A stretch of DNA of 18,970 nucleotides from Candidatus Eiseniibacteriota bacterium (lineage in GTDB: Bacteria > Eisenbacteria > RBG-16-71-46): contig JANLWX010000048.1 of assembly GCA_031364845.1 (NCBI GenBank), forward strand, positions 1-18,970. Reading direction: 5' to 3'. Within the stretch, counting starts at the first letter, position 1, and each line of letters opens with the position of its first letter. Position numbers and translations under genes: made by a program. The notes under the pieces are model-generated. The model was not told where the DNA came from, made no database searches, and saw nothing but the letters and a program-made list of their open reading frames with translations. Positions 37 to 11,261 of this stretch are shown here, piece after piece.

Positions 37-986
37 GCAATGGCCGTGCGACCCGGCGCCCGCGCGGCGCGGGGAACGCCGCGGTCGTCGCCGGTCCGCG
101 CAGGCGCCGCACTCCGGCATCGGAATCTTCCGAACGCATGCTGCTCGTCACCTCGACGCCCGCGCTGCGCCGCCGGATCATGGAGTGGCGCCGCCGCGGC
201 GAATCGATCGCGTTCGTTCCGACGATGGGTGCATTGCATCGCGGACATCTGAGCCTGGTCGAGCGCGCGCGCGCCTCCGCCGATCGGGTGGCCGTCAGCA
301 TCTTCGTGAACCCGCTGCAGTTCGGACCGCGCGAGGACTTCGCGCGCTATCCGCGCCCGGTGGCCACCGATCGCGCGCTGTTGCGCGCCGCCGGTGTCGA
401 TCTGCTATGGGAGCCGCGCGTCGAGCAGCTCTATCCGCCGGGTGATCGCACGCGCGTCCACGTCGAAGGTCTCGAAGCCGTGCTCGAAGGCGCATCGCGG
501 CCCGGCCACTTCACCGGCGTCACGACGGTGGTCGCCAAGCTGCTGAACGCGATCCAGCCGGATATCTTGTGGCTCGGACAGAAGGACGCGCAGCAGGCGC
601 GCATGATCGAGCAGATGGCAGCGGATCTGGCGTTTCCCGTGCGCGTGCGCCGCGCCGCAACCGTGCGCGAGCCGGACGGGCTTGCGTGTTCGTCGCGAAA
701 CCGCTACTTGAGTGCGGAGGAACGCGCGGAGGCGGTCGCGCTGTCGCGCTCGCTCGCTGCCGCACGCGAGGCGCTGCAGGGCGGAGAACGCAGCGCCGCG
801 CGCGTGATGAAACAAATGCGCCGCGTGATGAGGAGCTTTCCGCGCGCGCGCGAGGACTACATCGCGGTCGTGGATGCGCGCACGCTCGAACCCGTGCGCC
901 GTATCGAACGCCGCGTGCTGATCGCGGTCGCGGCGCGCCTCGGCGCGACCCGGCTGATCGACAACCTGGAGTGGGAGCCCCGATGA
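33..986 (+). CDS. panC: Pantoate--beta-alanine ligase (pantothenate synthetase)
   Basis: Motifs FVPTMGALHRGH, SIFVNPLQF, RPGHFTGV, GQKDAQQ, REPDGLACSSRN and RLIDN. The start is either TTG33 (GGGAG upstream, TTGA overlap with panB) or ATG138. Confidence 0.97.
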   Translation: MSNGRATRRPRGAGNAAVVAGPRRRRTPASESSERMLLVTSTPALRRRIMEWRRRGESIAFVPTMGALHRGHLSLVERARASADRVAVSIFVNPLQFGPREDFARYPRPVATDRALLRAAGVDLLWEPRVEQLYPPGDRTRVHVEGLEAVLEGASRPGHFTGVTTVVAKLLNAIQPDILWLGQKDAQQARMIEQMAADLAFPVRVRRAATVREPDGLACSSRNRYLSAEERAEAVALSRSLAAAREALQGGERSAARVMKQMRRVMRSFPRAREDYIAVVDARTLEPVRRIERRVLIAVAARLGATRLIDNLEWEPR

Positions 987-1768
987 CCCGATTTCGACAC
1001 CCCGATGTCGTGACCCTGGTGCTGGCCGCCGGCCAGGGGACGCGCATGAACAGCGACCTCGCGAAGGTGCTGCATCCGATGGCCGGCAAGCCGCTTCTCG
1101 CGCACGTGCTCGATTGTCTCGACGACCTCGGAGTCGGCCGCGTCGTGGTCGTGATCGGACACCAGCGCGAGCGTGTGCGCGAAACGTTCGCCGGCACCGA
1201 ACTCGAGTGGGCGGTGCAGGCCGAGCAGCGCGGCACCGGGCACGCGGTGCTGATGGCGGGCCCCGCACTCGAAGGATTCGAAGGCACGCTGCTGGTCGTG
1301 TGCGGCGACACGCCGCTCTTGCGCGCGAGCACGCTGCACGAGTTGATCGAAGGTCACGCGCGCTCCGGATGCGCGGCGACCGTGCTGTCGATGCGGCTCC
1401 CCGATCCCAAGGGCTACGGGCGAATTCTAAGGTCCGAGAATGGCGATCTGCTCGGGATCGTCGAAGAGCGCGATGCCGACGCCGCGCAGAAGCAGATCGA
1501 CGAAGTGAACTCGGGCATCTATGTGTTCCAGTATCCCGCGCTCGAGCAGGCGCTCGGCGGTTTGACCGCGAACAACGCCCAGGGCGAGTACTACCTCACC
1601 GACACGATGAATCTGATTCGCGGCGCGGGCCGGCGCGTGGCGGTGGTGTGTGCCCCGGACTATCGCGAGCTGCTCGGCATCAACACGCCCGATCAGCTGC
1701 GCGAAGCCGAGACGCTGTGGCACGAAGTGAAGCGCACCCGGAGGACCGACGATGCCGCCGCGCAATGA
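983..1768 (+). CDS. GlmU-like sugar-phosphate nucleotidyltransferase (uridyltransferase domain only, 261 aa)
   Basis: LAAGQGTRM..LAKVLH, Q.EQRGTGHAV, CGDTPL, GYGRI, IVEERDA, EVNSGIY, NAQGEYYLTD and GINT match the GlmU N-terminal domain. ATG983 overlaps the panC stop (ATGA). No hexapeptide acetyltransferase domain follows. Confidence 0.9.
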   Translation: MTRFRHPDVVTLVLAAGQGTRMNSDLAKVLHPMAGKPLLAHVLDCLDDLGVGRVVVVIGHQRERVRETFAGTELEWAVQAEQRGTGHAVLMAGPALEGFEGTLLVVCGDTPLLRASTLHELIEGHARSGCAATVLSMRLPDPKGYGRILRSENGDLLGIVEERDADAAQKQIDEVNSGIYVFQYPALEQALGGLTANNAQGEYYLTDTMNLIRGAGRRVAVVCAPDYRELLGINTPDQLREAETLWHEVKRTRRTDDAAAQ

Positions 1769-5007: not shown

Positions 5008-5163
5008 ACCTCCGAAAGCCGATCCCAAGTCCTGATCAATTGGCCTCGCGCGATCGTTTGCGCGATCACAATCTTCGTCTGCCCGCTCGGGTTTCCGTAG
5101 CTTCGCAGGTCGCGCTGTGCTACCAGTGTTCCTTGCGCTACACGACGTCCAACGGAGGGATGC

Positions 5164-6264
5164 ATGCGCAGTGAAACTCCGGTCCGGCTGGTCGAGCCCG
5201 AAACCCCGGGTCGCACCGGCACGTGGCCGACGCAGGTCCTCGATGCGCTCGAGCAGGCGGTGGTCGCACTCGATCGCGAGCGCAAGGTGGTCTACAACAA
5301 CCGCCGTATCGAGGAACTGCTCGGGGTCGAGCCCGGCACCCTGATCGGAACCGCCGGTTCGCGCGTGTTCCCGGGTGCCGATGCGCGCTGGCTCAAGGGT
5401 TCATCGCACGAGAGCCGGGACTTCCGCCTCGAAGCCGAGGATCGTGAGCTGACACTCAAGGCGGAAGCACTCCCGATCCGCGCCGAGGACGGCGAACTGG
5501 TCGGCTCGGTGGTGCTGGCCGAGGCGATTTCCGAGACCGAGGACGGCGAGTTCCAGAAGAAGATCGACCGGCTGGTGTCGCTCGGCGAGCTGTCGGCCTA
5601 CGTCGCGCACGAGATCCGCAATCCGCTGACCGGAATCCGCACCACCGTGCAGTTCGTCGGCTCGAAGTTCAAGACGCGCGATCCGCGGCGCGAGGACCTC
5701 GACGACGTGATCAAGGAGCTGGACCGCATCGAGCAGATCATCACCGGGCTGCTGCTGTTCGCGAAGCCTCCGAGTGCGCGGCCGCAGCCGTGCGATCTTC
5801 AACCGGTGCTGCAGAAGACGCTCGACATGCTCGATCTGCAGCTCGGTGACGCGCAGGTGCAGTTGTTCCAGGACTACGCTGCCGATCTTCCCGAGGTCTA
5901 CGCCGATCCCGACCTCACCCAGCAGGTGTTCCTGAACCTGATCCTCAACTCGCTCCAGGCGATGCCTCAGGGGGGCGAACTCCACGTTTCGACCGGCGTG
6001 CGCCGCTACCGCACCCGTCGATCGATGGTCGACGTTTCGTTCCGCGACACCGGAGTCGGGATTCCGAAGGAGCTGATGGAGAAGATCTTCGATCCGTTCT
6101 TCACCACCCGCTCGATGGGCACCGGGCTGGGGCTGCCGATCTCGGTGCAGATCGTGCGCGACATCGGCGGCATGATCACGGCCAAGAATAATTCCAGCGG
6201 TGGGGCGACGCTGCGCGTGTCGTTCCCGGTTCCGACCGAGTCGTCGGGCCGGACCGAGGAGTAA
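5164..6264 (+). CDS. Cytoplasmic PAS-domain sensor histidine kinase (NtrB/AtoS-like)
   Basis: GGAGGG SD; PAS-like N-terminus (VLDALEQAVVALD..VVYNNRRIEELLG); H-box VAHEIRNPL, N-box QQVFLNLILNS, DTGVGI, IFDPFFTT and GTGLGL. No TM segment. Confidence 0.95.
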   Translation: MRSETPVRLVEPETPGRTGTWPTQVLDALEQAVVALDRERKVVYNNRRIEELLGVEPGTLIGTAGSRVFPGADARWLKGSSHESRDFRLEAEDRELTLKAEALPIRAEDGELVGSVVLAEAISETEDGEFQKKIDRLVSLGELSAYVAHEIRNPLTGIRTTVQFVGSKFKTRDPRREDLDDVIKELDRIEQIITGLLLFAKPPSARPQPCDLQPVLQKTLDMLDLQLGDAQVQLFQDYAADLPEVYADPDLTQQVFLNLILNSLQAMPQGGELHVSTGVRRYRTRRSMVDVSFRDTGVGIPKELMEKIFDPFFTTRSMGTGLGLPISVQIVRDIGGMITAKNNSSGGATLRVSFPVPTESSGRTEE

Positions 6265-6265
6265 G

Positions 6266-7657
6266 GTGAAGACAACCGTGATGGTGGTCGACGACGAGCT
6301 CCTGATCCGCAAATCCCTCTCGAAGGTGTTGCGCGCGCGAGGTTTCCGGGTCGAGGTCGCGAGCACCGGCGGCGAGGGGATCGAAAAGGTCGCCGAGGTC
6401 CATCCGCAGGTGATGATCCTCGACATGCGCCTGCCCGACACCGACGGCCTCACGGTGCTCAAGCGCGTGCGCGAGATGGACCCGCTGCTGCAGGTGATCG
6501 TGATCACCGCGTTCGGCGACGTCCAGTCGGCGGTCGATGCGATGAAGCTCGGCGCATGCGACTTCCTGCGCAAGCCCTACGAGCTGGAAGACATCGCGCT
6601 GGCGGTCGATTCGGCCGGCAAGACCTTCCGTCAGGCGAGCGAACTCGACCTCTATCGCCGTCAGGCATGGCGCAACTACACCGGCGAGGAGATCGTCGGC
6701 GTCTCGCCCCTGATGCGCGACGTGCGCGGCCTGATCGAGAAGGTGGTGCGCAGCAAGGCGACCTCGGTCGTGATCTCGGGCGAGAGCGGCACCGGCAAGG
6801 AACTGGTCGCCCGCGCAATTCATTACCGCAGCGACCGCGCCAAACGGCCCTTGATGGAGATCAACTGTTCGTCGTTCCAGGAAAATCTTCTCGAGAACGA
6901 ATTGTTCGGCCATGAGCGCGGCGCGTTCACCGACGCCTCGGACATCAAGAAGGGTCTGGTCGAGTTGTGCGACGGGGGCACGTTGTTTCTCGACGAGGTC
7001 GCCGACATGCAGCTACCGACCCAGGCCAAGCTGCTGCGCTTCATCGATCATCGCAACTTCAAGCGTGTCGGCGGAGCGCAGGACATCGCGGTCGACATCC
7101 GCATCGTCGCGGCGACCAACAAGGACCTCGAAGGGGAGGTGCGCTCGGGGCGCTTCCGTCACGATCTCTACTTCCGCTTGAAGGTCGTCCGCATCCATCT
7201 GCCGCCGTTGCGCGATCGCGGCGAAGACGTGCTGCTGCTGGCCAATCACTTCCTGCGCGAGTTCTCTCGCAAGTTTCAGAAGGGCTTCAAGGATGTTGCG
7301 CCGGGCGCGCTTCAGTTGCTCAACGCCTACCCGTGGCCGGGCAATGTTCGGGAGCTGCGCAATGTGATCGAGCGGGTCGTGCTGCTCGAAGAAGGTGAGC
7401 GGCTCGAAGCCGAGCATCTGCCGCCCGAAGTGCTCGGCCGGCGCGTGATCGTGAGCGAGTCGACGCTCGAACAATCCGAAGCGTTGTCGTTGCCCACGCT
7501 CGCGCAGATCGAAGCGGATCACATCAGCGAAGTGCTGCAACTCACCGCGGGAAACAAGAGCCGCGCCGCGCGAATTCTCGGCATTTCGCGACAGGGATTG
7601 ATCGAGAAGTTGCGCCGCTTGAAGGGCGAAGAAAGCTTCGGCCGTCAAGTATCTTGA
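6266..7657 (+). CDS. sigma54-dependent response regulator (NtrC/AtoC family: REC-AAA+-Fis HTH)
   Basis: VVDDE and ILDMRLP receiver; Walker A GESGTGKE; ELFGHERGAFTDA; Walker B LFLDEV; WPGNVREL; HTH GNKSRAARILGISR. GTG6266 lies 1 nt after the kinase stop, with GAGGAG upstream. Confidence 0.96.
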   Translation: MKTTVMVVDDELLIRKSLSKVLRARGFRVEVASTGGEGIEKVAEVHPQVMILDMRLPDTDGLTVLKRVREMDPLLQVIVITAFGDVQSAVDAMKLGACDFLRKPYELEDIALAVDSAGKTFRQASELDLYRRQAWRNYTGEEIVGVSPLMRDVRGLIEKVVRSKATSVVISGESGTGKELVARAIHYRSDRAKRPLMEINCSSFQENLLENELFGHERGAFTDASDIKKGLVELCDGGTLFLDEVADMQLPTQAKLLRFIDHRNFKRVGGAQDIAVDIRIVAATNKDLEGEVRSGRFRHDLYFRLKVVRIHLPPLRDRGEDVLLLANHFLREFSRKFQKGFKDVAPGALQLLNAYPWPGNVRELRNVIERVVLLEEGERLEAEHLPPEVLGRRVIVSESTLEQSEALSLPTLAQIEADHISEVLQLTAGNKSRAARILGISRQGLIEKLRRLKGEESFGRQVS

Positions 7658-7658
7658 C
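7644..7658. promoter_or_regulatory. Palindrome GTCAAG-N3-CTTGAC, candidate upstream activator sequence
   Basis: Perfect 6-3-6 inverted repeat over the regulator's stop codon, about 245 bp upstream of the predicted sigma54 start site. Confidence 0.45.
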
Positions 7659-7827
7659 ACCAGCAAAGAAGTGGACAGTCGCTCCCATCTTTGCCGTTCC
7701 CAACGTGTTAACTGGTGTCGTCCTCGTAAGCACCCACAGATCTAGACACTTAGACGATCTCTCCACCGCGATATCCCCATCGGTTGACCAGACCTCGCCA
7801 TATGGAATTCTTCTCTAGTTGCCTACA

Positions 7828-7841
7828 CATCAATCGATTGA
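7828..7841. promoter_or_regulatory. IHF-like binding site
   Basis: cATCAAtcgaTTG matches WATCAANNNNTTR except at the first base. It includes the palindrome TCAATCGATTGA and lies between the candidate UAS and the -24/-12 promoter. Confidence 0.55.
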
Positions 7842-7870
7842 ACGATATCGACGCACGAGTGATCACCTCG

Positions 7871-7886
7871 TGGCACGAGCCGTGCT
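7871..7886 (+). promoter_or_regulatory. sigma54 (RpoN) -24/-12 promoter
   Basis: TGGCACG-AGCC-GTGCT against the consensus TGGCACG-N4-TTGCW: one mismatch and exact GG-N10-GC spacing. It is followed by AT-rich TTAGAAATAAACAA, with +1 predicted near 7897. Confidence 0.82.
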
Positions 7887-8031
7887 TTAGAAATAAACAA
7901 GGCCATGGAGCGCTCTCGGGAGCGTTCCGTCGTGGCCGCCATGGCCGAGCGGTTCGGCGGCCAAACGACATCGTGGCGAGTGGTGAACCCACCGCCCAAT
8001 TTTTCGAAACACTCGAGGAGGTGATTCTCCA

Positions 8032-8097
8032 ATGCCGGCAAAGAAGAAGGCGACGAAGAAGAAGGCTGCGAAGAAGGCGGGAAAGAAGAAGAAGTAG
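8032..8097 (+). CDS. 21-aa Lys/Ala-rich histone-H1-like micropeptide MPAKKKATKKKAAKKAGKKKK
   Basis: SD GAGGAGGTGA (8015-8024) ends 7 nt before ATG8032; TAG at 8095-8097. 12 of 21 residues are Lys, all AAG. Flanked by the sigma54 promoter and a terminator. Confidence 0.82.
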   Translation: MPAKKKATKKKAAKKAGKKKK

Positions 8098-8122
8098 TTG
8101 ATCAGGACCTGGCACGTCCTTA

Positions 8123-8166
8123 GGGGATTGGTTGGCGCCTGACGTCGGCCAATCCCCGAATTTCTT
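8123..8166 (+). terminator. Probable rho-independent terminator after the micropeptide
   Basis: 15-bp stem GGGGATTGGTTGGCG / CGTCGGCCAATCCCC (3 G-U pairs) with a 5-nt loop, followed by GAATTTCTT. Confidence 0.7.
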
Positions 8167-8480
8167 ACTGGCGAGCGCGAGGGAAACGCGACGCCTTCAT
8201 GCTCGAAAGCGAAGATTCGGACAAGGGACCGAGGACTCGCCCGGAGCACTGCCAATCCAAAACTTACTGAACGAGGCTGGAGGTCGCGCTAGGGCTGGCC
8301 GTCTTTCCTCCAGATCGTTGCAACGACTCGCTCATGGATGGGCGGGTCGTTTGCGCTTTCCCCTTGATGCTTCGGCTATAGTCCGTGCGTGCGCGGACAG
8401 CGCTCCGGCGGGTTGCGCGCCCGGGAGCCGCATCCCCGCTCCCGATCATCCGGGCCGCCTCATCACGCGCGAGGACATCC

Positions 8481-11261
8481 TTGAGCCCCGCCCCCGGTCC
8501 CGAATTCATTCAAGTGCGCGGCGCGCGCCAGCACAACCTGCGCAACATCGACGTCGACATCCCGCGCGGACGTCTGACCGTGATCACCGGCGTCTCAGGA
8601 TCCGGCAAGTCGTCGCTCGCCTTCGACACGTTGTATGCGGAAGGCCAGCGCCGCTACGTCGAGTCGGTCTCGACCTACGCGAAGCAGTACCTCGACCGGC
8701 TGCCGCGCCCGGCCGTCGACTTCATCGCAGGGCTCACGCCCGCGGTCGCGATCCAGCAACTGGCGCCGGCGCGCAGCGCACGTTCGACGGTCGGCACCAC
8801 CACCGAGATCCACGACTATCTGCGCGTGATGTTCGCGAGGCTCGGCGTCGTGCACTGCGCGAACTGCGGGCGCGCGGTGGCCGCGGATTCTCCCGAGAGC
8901 GTCGTTGCGGCGTCGGCGCACTGGACTGAAGGCGATCCGATCGTGATCGCCGCTCCGGTCGCGCGCCCCGCGAAGATGAAGTGGGAGGAGCAGGCGGGGC
9001 ACCTGATGCGCGCCGGGTACACGCGCATCCTGATCGACGGTGTCGTGACACCGCTCGATCCGCTGCCGAAGGTCGCGCGGACGGTGAAAGAGATCCGGCT
9101 CGTCATCGACCGGTTCACGTGGACCGAAGCGGACCGCTCGCGCCTCGCCGAGTCCGCCGAGCAGGCGTTCCGCCGCGGCGAAGGGCGCCTCGAGATCCAT
9201 CGCGGCAACCACCCGGTCGAGCCGTTCCGCGAGCGCTGGGAGTGCTCGGCGTGTGGAACGCCCGCCGTCCAGCCCGAGCCCGCGCTGTTCTCGTTCAACA
9301 GTCCGCTCGGCGTGTGTCCCGCGTGCCGCGGGTTCGGCAACATCCTCACGTTCTCGCGCGATCTCATCGTCCCCGATCCATCGCTCACGTTGCGCGAGGG
9401 CGCGGTCCGTCCGTGGGCCGGATCGTGGAAGAAGGCGTTCTGGCCCAAGCTCGAGAAGGTCGCGGCCGAACAGAAGATCCCGCTCGACGTTCCGTGGCGC
9501 GCGCTGTCCGCCGCGCATCGGACCCTGTTGATGGAAGGCTGCGCCGGGTTCCGCGGCGCGCTGCCGTTCCTCGAGCGCCTGCAGCAGAAGTCGTACGCCA
9601 TCGGCAACCGGTTCGTCGTGAAGAAGTACCAGGTGGCGGTGGAGTGCTCGGAGTGCCATGGAACCCGGCTGCGCAAGGAGGCGCTCTCGGTGCGCCTCGC
9701 GGGCTCCAACATCGCCGAGGTGTGCGCACTCACGGTCGCCCAGGTTTCGCGCTGGGTCGAGAACCTCACGTTCGCCGAGCACGAGCGCCAGATCGCAGGC
9801 TCGGTGCTGGGTGAGCTGCAGTCGCGCCTGCGGTTCCTCGAGCGCGTCGACCTCGGCTACCTCACGCTCGAGCGGCTCACCCGCACGCTGTCGGGCGGCG
9901 AGGCGCAGCGCATCGAGCTGGCGAACGCACTCGGCGCGAACCTCGCCGACACCTTGTATGTGCTCGACGAGCCCACGGTCGGCCTTCACGCGCGTGATAC
10001 GCATCGGTTGATCGCGATCATGGACGAGCTGGCCTCGCGCGGGAACACGCTGGTCGTGGTCGAGCACGAGCCGATGGTGATGCGCGCCGCGCAGCACGTG
10101 ATCGATCTCGGACCGGGCGCGGGGACGAACGGGGGACAGTTGCTGTATGCGGGCCCCGGCGGCGCGCCGCTCGCTGCCGCCGACACCGAGACCGCGCGTT
10201 ATCTAAGAGGCGAGAAGCGCATCACCCGCAAACGCATCCCCGGCGTCGCGAAGCACTTCGTCGTGATCGAAGGCGCGAGCCAGCACAATCTGAAGAACGT
10301 GACCGCGCGCTTTCCCATCGGCCGCCTCACCGCGGTGACCGGCGTGTCGGGCTCCGGCAAGAGCAGCCTGATCGAGGACGTGTTGTGGCGCGCTGCGGTG
10401 CGCGCGCTCGAGGGCGCGAGCGACGAAACGCCCGGGGCGCATCGTGCGGTGCGCGGCCTCGAGCATCTGAAGCGCGCGGTACTCGTCGATCAATCGCCGA
10501 TCGGCCGCACGCCGCGATCGTGCCCCGTGACTTACGTCGGCGCGTACGGACCGCTGCGCGAGATCTACGCGCGCCAGCCCGCCGCACTCGCGCGCGGGTT
10601 CAAGGACGGGGCGTTCTCGTTCAACACCGCGGGCGGACGCTGCGAGACCTGCCAGGGTGCGGGCTGGGTGACGGTCGAGATGTATTTCCTCGCCGACCTG
10701 CTGGTGCCGTGCGAGGACTGCGATGGCGCGCGCTTCCGCCGCGAGGTGCTCGAAGTGCGCTACCGCGGGCTCAACATCCGCGAGGCGCTCGACCTCACCG
10801 TCGACCGCGCGTTCGAGCACTTCGCGACCGAGCCGCGCTTCACGCGCGCGCTCCACATTCTGCGCCGCGTCGGACTCGGCTATCTCACGCTCGGCCAGCC
10901 CGCGAACCAGCTCTCGGGCGGTGAGGCCCAGCGCCTGAAGATCGCGCGTGAGCTGGCGGAGAAAGGATCGGGCCCGGCGCTCTATCTGCTCGACGAGCCC
11001 ACGGTCGGACTCCACTGGGCCGACATCCAGCAGCTGCTCATGGTGCTCGACGACCTCACCGGTCGCGGCGACACCGTGATCGTGGTCGAGCACAACCTCG
11101 ATGTCGTCCGGAATTGCGACTGGGTCGTGGACCTGGGACCGGACGGAGGCGACGGCGGGGGAACGCTGGTCGCCGAAGGTCCGCCCGAAGTGATTCAGGC
11201 GAGCGAGCGTTCGTGGACCGGGCGCTTCATGCGTGAGGCGGAGCTGCTCACGCCGGCCTAG
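8481..11261 (+). CDS. uvrA: Excinuclease ABC subunit A family ABC ATPase (probably a second UvrA paralogue)
   Basis: GARQHNL, two [11 protein letters not shown]alker A motifs, [10 protein letters not shown], two LSGGEAQR signatures, two LDEPTVGLH motifs, and multiple CxxC zinc pairs. Likely start TTG8481 after GAGGA; the frame is open from GTG8385. Confidence 0.95.

Follow-up and report, generated by a model that had tools for sequence, protein, structure and literature searches.

Our subject is a small genetic cassette in an 18,970-nt stretch of DNA, which we call the window. It makes up one contig (C155) of a genome of 4.6 Mb and 97% completeness (the host genome) from the uncultured bacterial phylum Eisenbacteria. 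Genes for a PAS sensor kinase and an NtrC-type activator are followed there by a sigma54 promoter and a short transcription unit, whose open reading frame (ORF) encodes a peptide of 21 residues, 12 of them lysine and none acidic. Judged by sequence comparison, this ORF is a genuine gene that annotation has missed, and the sigma54 circuit it stands under looks dedicated to it. That the neighbouring kinase/activator pair activates the promoter we hold to be highly probable. Whether the peptide binds DNA seems to us evenly balanced, and we are about half-persuaded of the reading as a whole, in which the pair likely activates the promoter and the peptide most likely binds and compacts DNA as a minimal polycation of the histone H1/Hc2 kind.

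A preliminary description of this DNA had listed a palindrome, a site resembling those of integration host factor (IHF), a -24/-12 element, a Shine-Dalgarno (SD) sequence, the ORF and a terminator. All of them are where it had placed them, and Pfam domains bear out the kinase and activator. What it had overlooked is the invariant hairpin at 8104–8120, the lone receiver gene of most families and the roughly 12-fold range in peptide length.

Conservation and loss of the circuit

Comparative genomics, joint loss in one lineage included, strongly supports the proposal that a short sigma54 transcript for a real polycationic peptide is under the control of the kinase/activator pair beside it. The kinase was detected (E <= 1e-60) in 145 of the 151 Eisenbacteria genomes surveyed. 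We tabulated 80 orthologous loci, hand-picked to spread across families and not taken from every genome, five short ones being swapped for longer stretches from the same genomes. As the preliminary description had suggested, a promoter and a Lys-rich ORF were sought behind the orthologous pairs, and both are there. The ORF occurs in all 76 loci whose sequence continues for 800 nt or more past the activator gene: 72 pass the filter for an SD sequence and Lys-rich ORF (three of these truncated at contig ends and two with assembly gaps), two more are Lys/Arg-rich on inspection, and in the remaining two genomes (G019 and G062) an insertion has displaced the module but spared its enhancer, promoter, ORF and terminator. 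The insertion is transposase-like in G019 (loci L041 and L188) and about 4 kb long in G062 (L189).

A sigma54 element follows the activator gene at a distance of about 210 nt. It scores at least 9 in 63 of 79 loci, and 61 of the 79 have it 150–350 nt past that gene, as compared with 4.7% of random windows of 200 nt; at a threshold of 10 the count is 57 of 79 against 0.7%. Fourteen of the 16 loci below threshold retain a -24 box at the same place; the other two are G019 and G062, with their displaced modules. Thirteen of the fourteen (L051, L055, L057, L058, L062, L064, L070, L073, L075, L079, L081, L038 and L067) have GT, GG or GA in place of GC at -12 with the -24 box conserved, as putative non-canonical, lineage-specific sigma54 promoters.

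Upstream of the promoter lie the predicted enhancer sites. The palindrome at 7644–7658 is present as first described, but it is in fact the core of a 17-bp TGTC-N9-GACA site, one of two or three. With a seed taken from two families, we found a site in 58 of 63 promoter regions (shuffle mean 4.7) and in 27 of the 30 loci of held-out families (2.2 in shuffled sequence). The usual layout is two tandem sites with a third 70–90 bp closer to the promoter; the position of the third recurs in several families and is uncertain in the window. Site 1 lies 228 bp 5' of the -24 element and overlaps the activator stop codon. Scored with a matrix made solely from other families, it is the top site of the whole host genome, at 23.9 bits against 20.4 for the next. 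The recognition helix of the activator is conserved across orthologues alongside the enhancer. Among 280 sigma54-like sites in the host genome, this promoter is the sole strong pairing of enhancer with promoter; a search of that genome for a second such site, as would mark a wider regulon, found none, and on these scores the pair appears to have no other strong target there.

The cassette was also sought blind, in metagenome contigs chosen by SD sequence, start codon and 3' hairpin alone. At least 120 loci were collected, 107 after removal of 13 duplicates. A closed Lys-rich ORF was present in 107 of 107, a sigma54 element in 100 of the 100 with enough upstream DNA and an enhancer in 61 of 64.

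Six of the 151 genomes lacked a kinase match. In one, the kinase is actually split into two pieces and the rest of the cassette is intact; another is 85% complete and has no rpoN match either. The other four belong to one family, keep rpoN, have no lone receiver and carry a Lys-rich ORF of 17–18 residues before uvrA. In the three of these with upstream DNA, enhancer and sigma54 element are gone and the flanks are collinear with those of a circuit-bearing family member. The same three share a conserved TTGAC[AT], with TGTG 17 nt on, 85–104 nt ahead of the start codon, a sigma70-like element that would serve as promoter in place of the sigma54 element. The peptide gene thus outlasts the circuit, and the sigma54 promoter leaves with the pair. 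A role in stress or dormancy, raised in the preliminary description, gains nothing specific from these data, and the gene persists behind a sigma70-like element where the circuit has been lost.

A lone receiver gene stands between promoter and peptide gene in 79 of 91 genomes of other families and in none of 60 from the family of the analysed genome (the host family). In Eisenbacteria it retains the phospho-acceptor Asp. Of the 54 receivers in the host genome, that of the activator comes second for likeness to the lone receiver at helix-1 positions, a weak sign that the two share one kinase.

Beyond Eisenbacteria, the cassette was found at just one of the kinase loci among the 68 matches listed. 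The kinase also occurs in 11 of the 12 genomes of a second, small GTDB phylum, one record of which was deposited as Gemmatimonadota, and all 11 loci have a sigma54 element, a Lys/Arg/Ala ORF of 46–165 residues and a terminator. An enhancer site reaches threshold in eight of the 11, and a receiver is visible in nine. This receiver lacks the acceptor Asp in eight of the nine visible cases (L103:3341-3763, L178-L187) and so would act without phosphorylation. In two neighbouring phyla (61 + 61 genomes), the best kinase scores were at most 283 bits, the level of paralogues, with orthologues at 341 or more; with this query, therefore, the cassette was not found there.

The peptide and its orthologues

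The ORF behaves as a coding sequence under selection. At 24 loci of the host family, it encodes 21, 22 or 27 residues and always stops at TAA or TAG, the length changes falling in whole codons. Between close pairs of 22-residue forms, differences at codon positions 1, 2 and 3 number 10, 71 and 128, with 106 synonymous against 71 non-synonymous changes. Across the loci of the phylum, the product ranges from 13 to 154 residues.

The peptide has four Lys clusters about five residues apart. Twenty long forms show a five-residue period (lag-5 value 0.85 against 0.51 when shuffled), and DNA is favoured as partner because these long orthologues are Hc2-like pentamer repeats of varying length. The histone-H1-like character first proposed for the peptide gains support from this, pentamer-repeat long forms occupying the same locus; scores fall under the Hc2 and H1 cut-offs. 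Many long forms (L066, L051, L057, L058, L068, L063 and others) end in a short, non-basic tail rich in Pro, Met and Leu, possibly a degradation or interaction tag.

An exact look-up of the 21-residue product in a collection of 15 billion proteins returned nothing; since it missed nine of ten queries, including long ORFs and a receiver, this is weak evidence that the gene goes unannotated.

Table 1. Features of the cassette (window positions).
Feature	Position	Strand	Evidence or remark
PAS-HisKA-HATPase sensor kinase, cytoplasmic, 366 residues, His149	5164..6264	+	Pfam
sigma54 enhancer-binding response regulator (receiver, AAA+, Fis-type helix-turn-helix)	6266..7657	+	Pfam/NCBIfam, motifs
Predicted enhancer site 1, TGTC-N9-GACA type, 17 bp	7643..7659	.	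Matrix score, conservation
Predicted weaker tandem enhancer site 2	7661..7677	.	5.8 bits; right half-site kept in family
Possible enhancer site 3, about -139	7732..7748	.	Right half-site only; <2 bits here
Candidate IHF/HU-type bending site, 13-mer	7828..7840	+	1 mismatch to WATCAR-N4-TTR
sigma54 promoter (-24/-12); +1 predicted near 7897	7871..7886	+	GG-N10-GC, conserved
Structured 5' leader, up to three hairpins	7897..8014	+	Family-specific; replaces receiver gene of other families
Strong SD sequence	8015..8025	+	Nine columns invariant in 24/24 family loci
Lys/Ala-rich micro-ORF, 21 residues, MPAKKKATKKKAAKKAGKKKK	8032..8097	+	Codon signature, conservation
Invariant mini-hairpin 3' of the ORF (stem 4-5 bp, loop 7 nt)	8104..8120	+	15-nt core conserved
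Intrinsic terminator-like hairpin, 15 bp	8123..8166	+	Stem 8123-8157, modest U-tract to 8166

The transcript

The weakest element of the promoter region is the IHF-like site. A site with at most one mismatch lies at -70 to -25 in nine of 63 loci (shuffle mean 2.4, maximum 5), and the exact consensus occurs anywhere in the region in 10 of 63 (null 0.45). No ihfA or ihfB equivalog above cut-off was found in the host genome, which has three genes of the HU/IHF family.

The leader had been described as structured, and comparison bears this out for its first stem. The first hairpin, at 7907–7928 with a UCGG loop, covaries: 110 of 126 cells are paired against 86 when permuted (14 genome loci), and 481 of 603 against 344 with arms permuted in the metagenome (67 loci). 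RNAalifold found no consensus structure for 24 full leaders, and the folding z-score, -4.4 in the window, is below -2 in just six of 24 family loci, mostly weak; a riboswitch-like conserved fold is thus unsupported, and modular hairpins are all that these results favour. Leader length differs by about 65 nt among relatives. Neither the window nor the small transcript has a match in Rfam 15. The hidden Markov model of the receiver gave no signal in the leaders of 25 family loci, and descent of the leader from the receiver gene was accordingly rejected.

The complement of the SD sequence is present at the 16S rRNA 3' end of relatives. Between stop codon and terminator, the 15-nt core of the mini-hairpin is exact in 83 of 86 host-family genomes and seven of nine from a sister family; it is single-copy in the host genome and recurs ahead of the terminator in some other families. 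The window, scanned with up to 3 mismatches allowed, contains no further copy of the RNA tail. Its loop resembles a -24 box, a candidate we rejected for lack of a -12 partner. The terminator stem shows compensatory changes and a pair probability of about 1.0 in the folded transcript.

Four runs contained 5–7% of the sequence words of 5164–8400. Two RNA runs, from different studies, yielded contigs identical to the window at 7918–8113 and 7917–8102, starting 20 nt inside the predicted start; at >=96% identity, these were the only long pieces listed for their runs over 19 kb. None of the four runs had an RNA contig over 7432–7863, which proves nothing by itself. The contigs are a weak hint that leader and ORF are transcribed and are uninformative on level, strand and ends.

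An 11-nt complement joins 5029–5039, upstream of the kinase gene, to 8098–8108 in the 3' tail; it is mostly non-conserved and is probably due to chance.

Kinase and activator

The kinase has no transmembrane segment (hydropathy maximum 1.15). Its predicted structure (predicted local distance difference test score, 79) contains a PAS fold, and searches with the model and the fold matched generic PAS kinases only; no conserved His or Cys is present in the PAS domain of its orthologues. In the ATPase domain there is a strongly basic beta-hairpin, residues 280–286 (window 6001–6021), whose Arg280, Arg281 and Arg283 are at least 90% conserved among 58 orthologues. It might contact a polyanion or membrane, perhaps as part of sensing.

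The activator frame is open from 6200, with a likely start at GTG 6266. It carries the receiver Asp, Walker motifs, a Fis-type helix-turn-helix and a GAFTDA loop, a variant of GAFTGA. The host genome has rpoN. Other strong sigma54-like elements of that genome are at C85:115085, C119:6795, C186 near 209, C50:39530 and C70:18890; in three cases a paralogous activator gene immediately precedes the element.

Comparison with known systems

By layout, the promoter is nearest to those of GlrR-glmY and CbrB-crcZ, both of which have non-coding outputs. The GlrR-dependent glmY promoter of Enterobacteriaceae carries IHF sites and, at distances of over 100 bp upstream, three sites of the form TGTC-N10-GACA (PMC3045617). 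GlrK/GlrR (also QseE/QseF) resembles our pair as a two-component sigma54 activator system encoded beside a small transcript, with two or three TGTC-N9-GACA sites upstream in our case. It differs in that glmY is non-coding, whereas the output here is a basic peptide, with a receiver in most families; in addition, the spacer here is 9 and not 10, the kinase is soluble and the target lies downstream of the pair.

CrcZ, the output of CbrA/CbrB, carries an A-rich triplet repeat motif and as a decoy works with Hfq besides Crc; the RNA here has A-rich triplet repeats as well. In Pseudomonas, crcZ is a small transcript under the NtrC-type regulator CbrB, dependent on sigma54 and assisted by IHF (PMC6296734), a likeness to our own small transcript and its NtrC-type regulator. 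CrcZ is, however, a non-coding decoy acting with Crc, whereas the repeats of our transcript form Lys codons, read in a frame that is under selection. Hfq was found in none of 61 genomes, and this, with the coding signature of the ORF, ruled out a CrcZ-type decoy for Hfq/Crc.

At the level of the product, the likeness is to Hc2 (HctB) of Chlamydia, BpH1 of Bordetella and the H1-like proteins of Burkholderia, with Lys-rich pentamers containing Ala, Val or Thr. Hc2 varies in size by repeat number (PMC2848022), as do the proteins here. Hc2 has 165–237 residues and two basic residues per pentamer, whereas here there are 13–165 residues and mostly three. In Chlamydia, hctB is transcribed by sigma28 and has no sigma54 promoter, yet rises about 3-fold on expression of the CtcC ATPase domain (PMC7482065, PMC12282069). 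All scores here are below the cut-offs of the Hc2/H1-like families (PF07382, NF038052, NF038053). Coxiella ScvA has about 30 residues; we know of no sigma54 circuit for ScvA or Hq1, nor of a developmental cycle in Eisenbacteria. These two small, basic, DNA-binding proteins, enriched in the condensed, non-replicating form of Coxiella (PMC4766238), are set beside our peptide by description only. Pseudomonas AlgP has an H1-like Lys/Ala repeat tail that binds polyanions (PMC9239181), but there KPAA repeats form a 154-residue tail on a larger protein, and here the basic tract stands alone.

Kinase and activator share their domain content with AtoS/AtoC, ZraS/ZraR and NtrB/NtrC. The best NCBIfam scores were 270 bits for AtoS (cut-off 646) and 467 bits for AtoC (cut-off 714); the pair fell below every cut-off tested among the AtoSC, ZraSR, NtrBC and GlrKR equivalogs. 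Its target differs from theirs, and it is orthologous to no named system tested. The circuit resembles GlrR-glmY at its promoter and probably Hc2 at its product, and it belongs to neither named family. A literature search, which covered few subscription papers and no supplements, turned up no paper describing the cassette, nor one of Eisenbacteria with a histone.

Proposed mechanism and significance

In the mechanism we favour, the soluble PAS kinase would sense a cytoplasmic signal and phosphorylate the activator, as its family would lead one to expect. The activator would bind its two or three TGTC-N9-GACA sites, 140–230 bp upstream, and open the sigma54 promoter, with the DNA possibly bent by an HU/IHF-type protein. 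The product would be an RNA of about 270 nt, its 5' hairpins, strong SD sequence and terminator visible in the DNA and its existence weakly hinted at by the RNA contigs. On translation, the Lys clusters would neutralise phosphate backbones, as the composition suggests. In other families, the same promoter would first yield the lone receiver, which would feed back negatively by drawing phosphate off the kinase; the host family has lost this receiver. Taken further, this picture is of a dedicated, signal-controlled chromatin switch, with a feedback receiver and an H1-like polycation tuned from 165 down to 13 residues, in Eisenbacteria and a second candidate phylum; here we lean somewhat towards doubt.

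Were the mechanism right, no sigma54 circuit dedicated to a protein that compacts the nucleoid would have been described before, and sigma54 would here give a two-component signal direct control over the state of the nucleoid. The available text of the Chlamydia papers (PMC7482065, PMC12282069) does not show such a link for hctB. The circuit would also provide a natural length series toward the smallest functional bacterial H1 mimic. Orthologous position ties unannotated, tiny polylysine genes to long Hc2-like proteins, and gives this class of gene a defined regulator, which makes it switchable and testable in a laboratory host. Such peptides would be expected to escape gene callers and trypsin proteomics. 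Nature has, moreover, supplied variants as ready experiments: peptides of 13–165 residues; receivers present, without Asp or lost; and the circuit deleted with its promoter replaced.

Alternative explanations

Several observations weigh against the compaction of DNA by a product of this particular pair. The host genome encodes 20 sigma54 activators, so that the pairing of activator with promoter rests on adjacency and joint conservation. The joint loss could go back to a single ancestral deletion of adjoining DNA, related genomes not being independent of each other. The blind-test loci are kin of the host family and hence not independent lineages. As to the product, PF07382 (HC2) matched three of the 12 ORFs scanned, at best with 27.8 bits against a cut-off of 40, matches that may reflect composition only; the NCBIfam H1-like models (NF038052, NF038053) matched four of 12, with 22.6 against 80 and 16.6 against 135; and the 21-mer matched none of the Hc2/H1-like models. 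The RNA contigs are unstranded, have a depth of 3–5 and come from runs picked with this region, and two other runs hold near-identical kinase pieces of 215–220 nt instead.

The most serious competitor keeps the same circuit and gives the peptide a different partner, RNA, the ribosome or polyphosphate, making it a polyamine-like counter-ion, a ribosome-associated micro-protein or an organiser of polyphosphate granules. We consider this unlikely, though well worth bearing in mind. The composition is 56% Lys+Arg with hardly any acidic or aromatic residue, which suits any polyanion; on sequence, the basic composition fits DNA, RNA and polyphosphate equally, a further point against DNA in particular. 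The H1-like tail of AlgP organises polyphosphate granules (PMC9239181), and the retention of the peptide gene where the circuit is lost suggests a general role. Yet repeat expansion from 13 to 165 residues is hardly what one would expect of a protein shaped to a site on the ribosome, and the repeat pattern is that of Hc2-type DNA-binding proteins (PMC2848022). That the RNA itself is the main output, as a dual-function transcript whose 3' or 5' hairpins bind a protein or target RNA in the manner of GlmY or CrcZ, seems to us improbable. The near-invariant 3' element, also present in some other families, and the covarying first stem speak for it, but hairpin and leader are lineage-limited whereas the ORF is universal, Hfq was not found and the leader varies in length. 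Pairing of the 3' loop with 16S rRNA was ruled out as well, an 8-nt complement being at chance level (208 of 1000 shuffles).

Control of a real sigma54 promoter by some other host activator, adjacency being inherited gene order, would accord with the number of such activators, with the conservation of the wider gene order (ppiD-like, uvrA, rarA) and with the module lying apart from the pair in two genomes. Set against this, the enhancer has been kept from family to family and so has the recognition helix, and enhancer and promoter vanish along with the pair although rpoN stays. Furthermore, six of 18 paralogous host activators have a sigma54 element directly behind the gene, so that adjacency is the usual pattern for a local target here, yet not proof, and we rate another activator as quite improbable. 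Most far-fetched of all is a lysine-sensing leader peptide governing read-through into uvrA. The Lys codons make up 12 of 21, a terminator follows the ORF and uvrA is often the next gene. The folded transcript has no competing antiterminator, however, the next gene differs from uvrA in many families, Arg substitutes for Lys and length varies about tenfold; uvrA, besides, has no known connection with lysine supply. With neither an antiterminator nor a constant amino-acid-related operon downstream, we rejected attenuation of uvrA.

Neighbouring genes and minor observations

The downstream uvrA (window 8385–11261) is one of two in the host genome, the other, on C82, being 46% identical. Together with an NDP-sugar epimerase gene and rarA/mgsA, uvrA recurs behind the cassette across families. 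An extended -10-like element follows the terminator in 14 of 40 loci, a hint of a separate downstream promoter. At one locus (L031:5967-6464), a gene for S-adenosylmethionine decarboxylase, an enzyme of polyamine synthesis, lies directly 3' of the peptide gene. Elsewhere in the host genome (C172 near 942–1311, minus strand), a basic ORF of 31 residues, which we take to resemble a ribosomal micro-protein of the bS22/mS38 type, adjoins a gene of the HU/IHF family, and similar ORFs occur in L115, L126 and L159.

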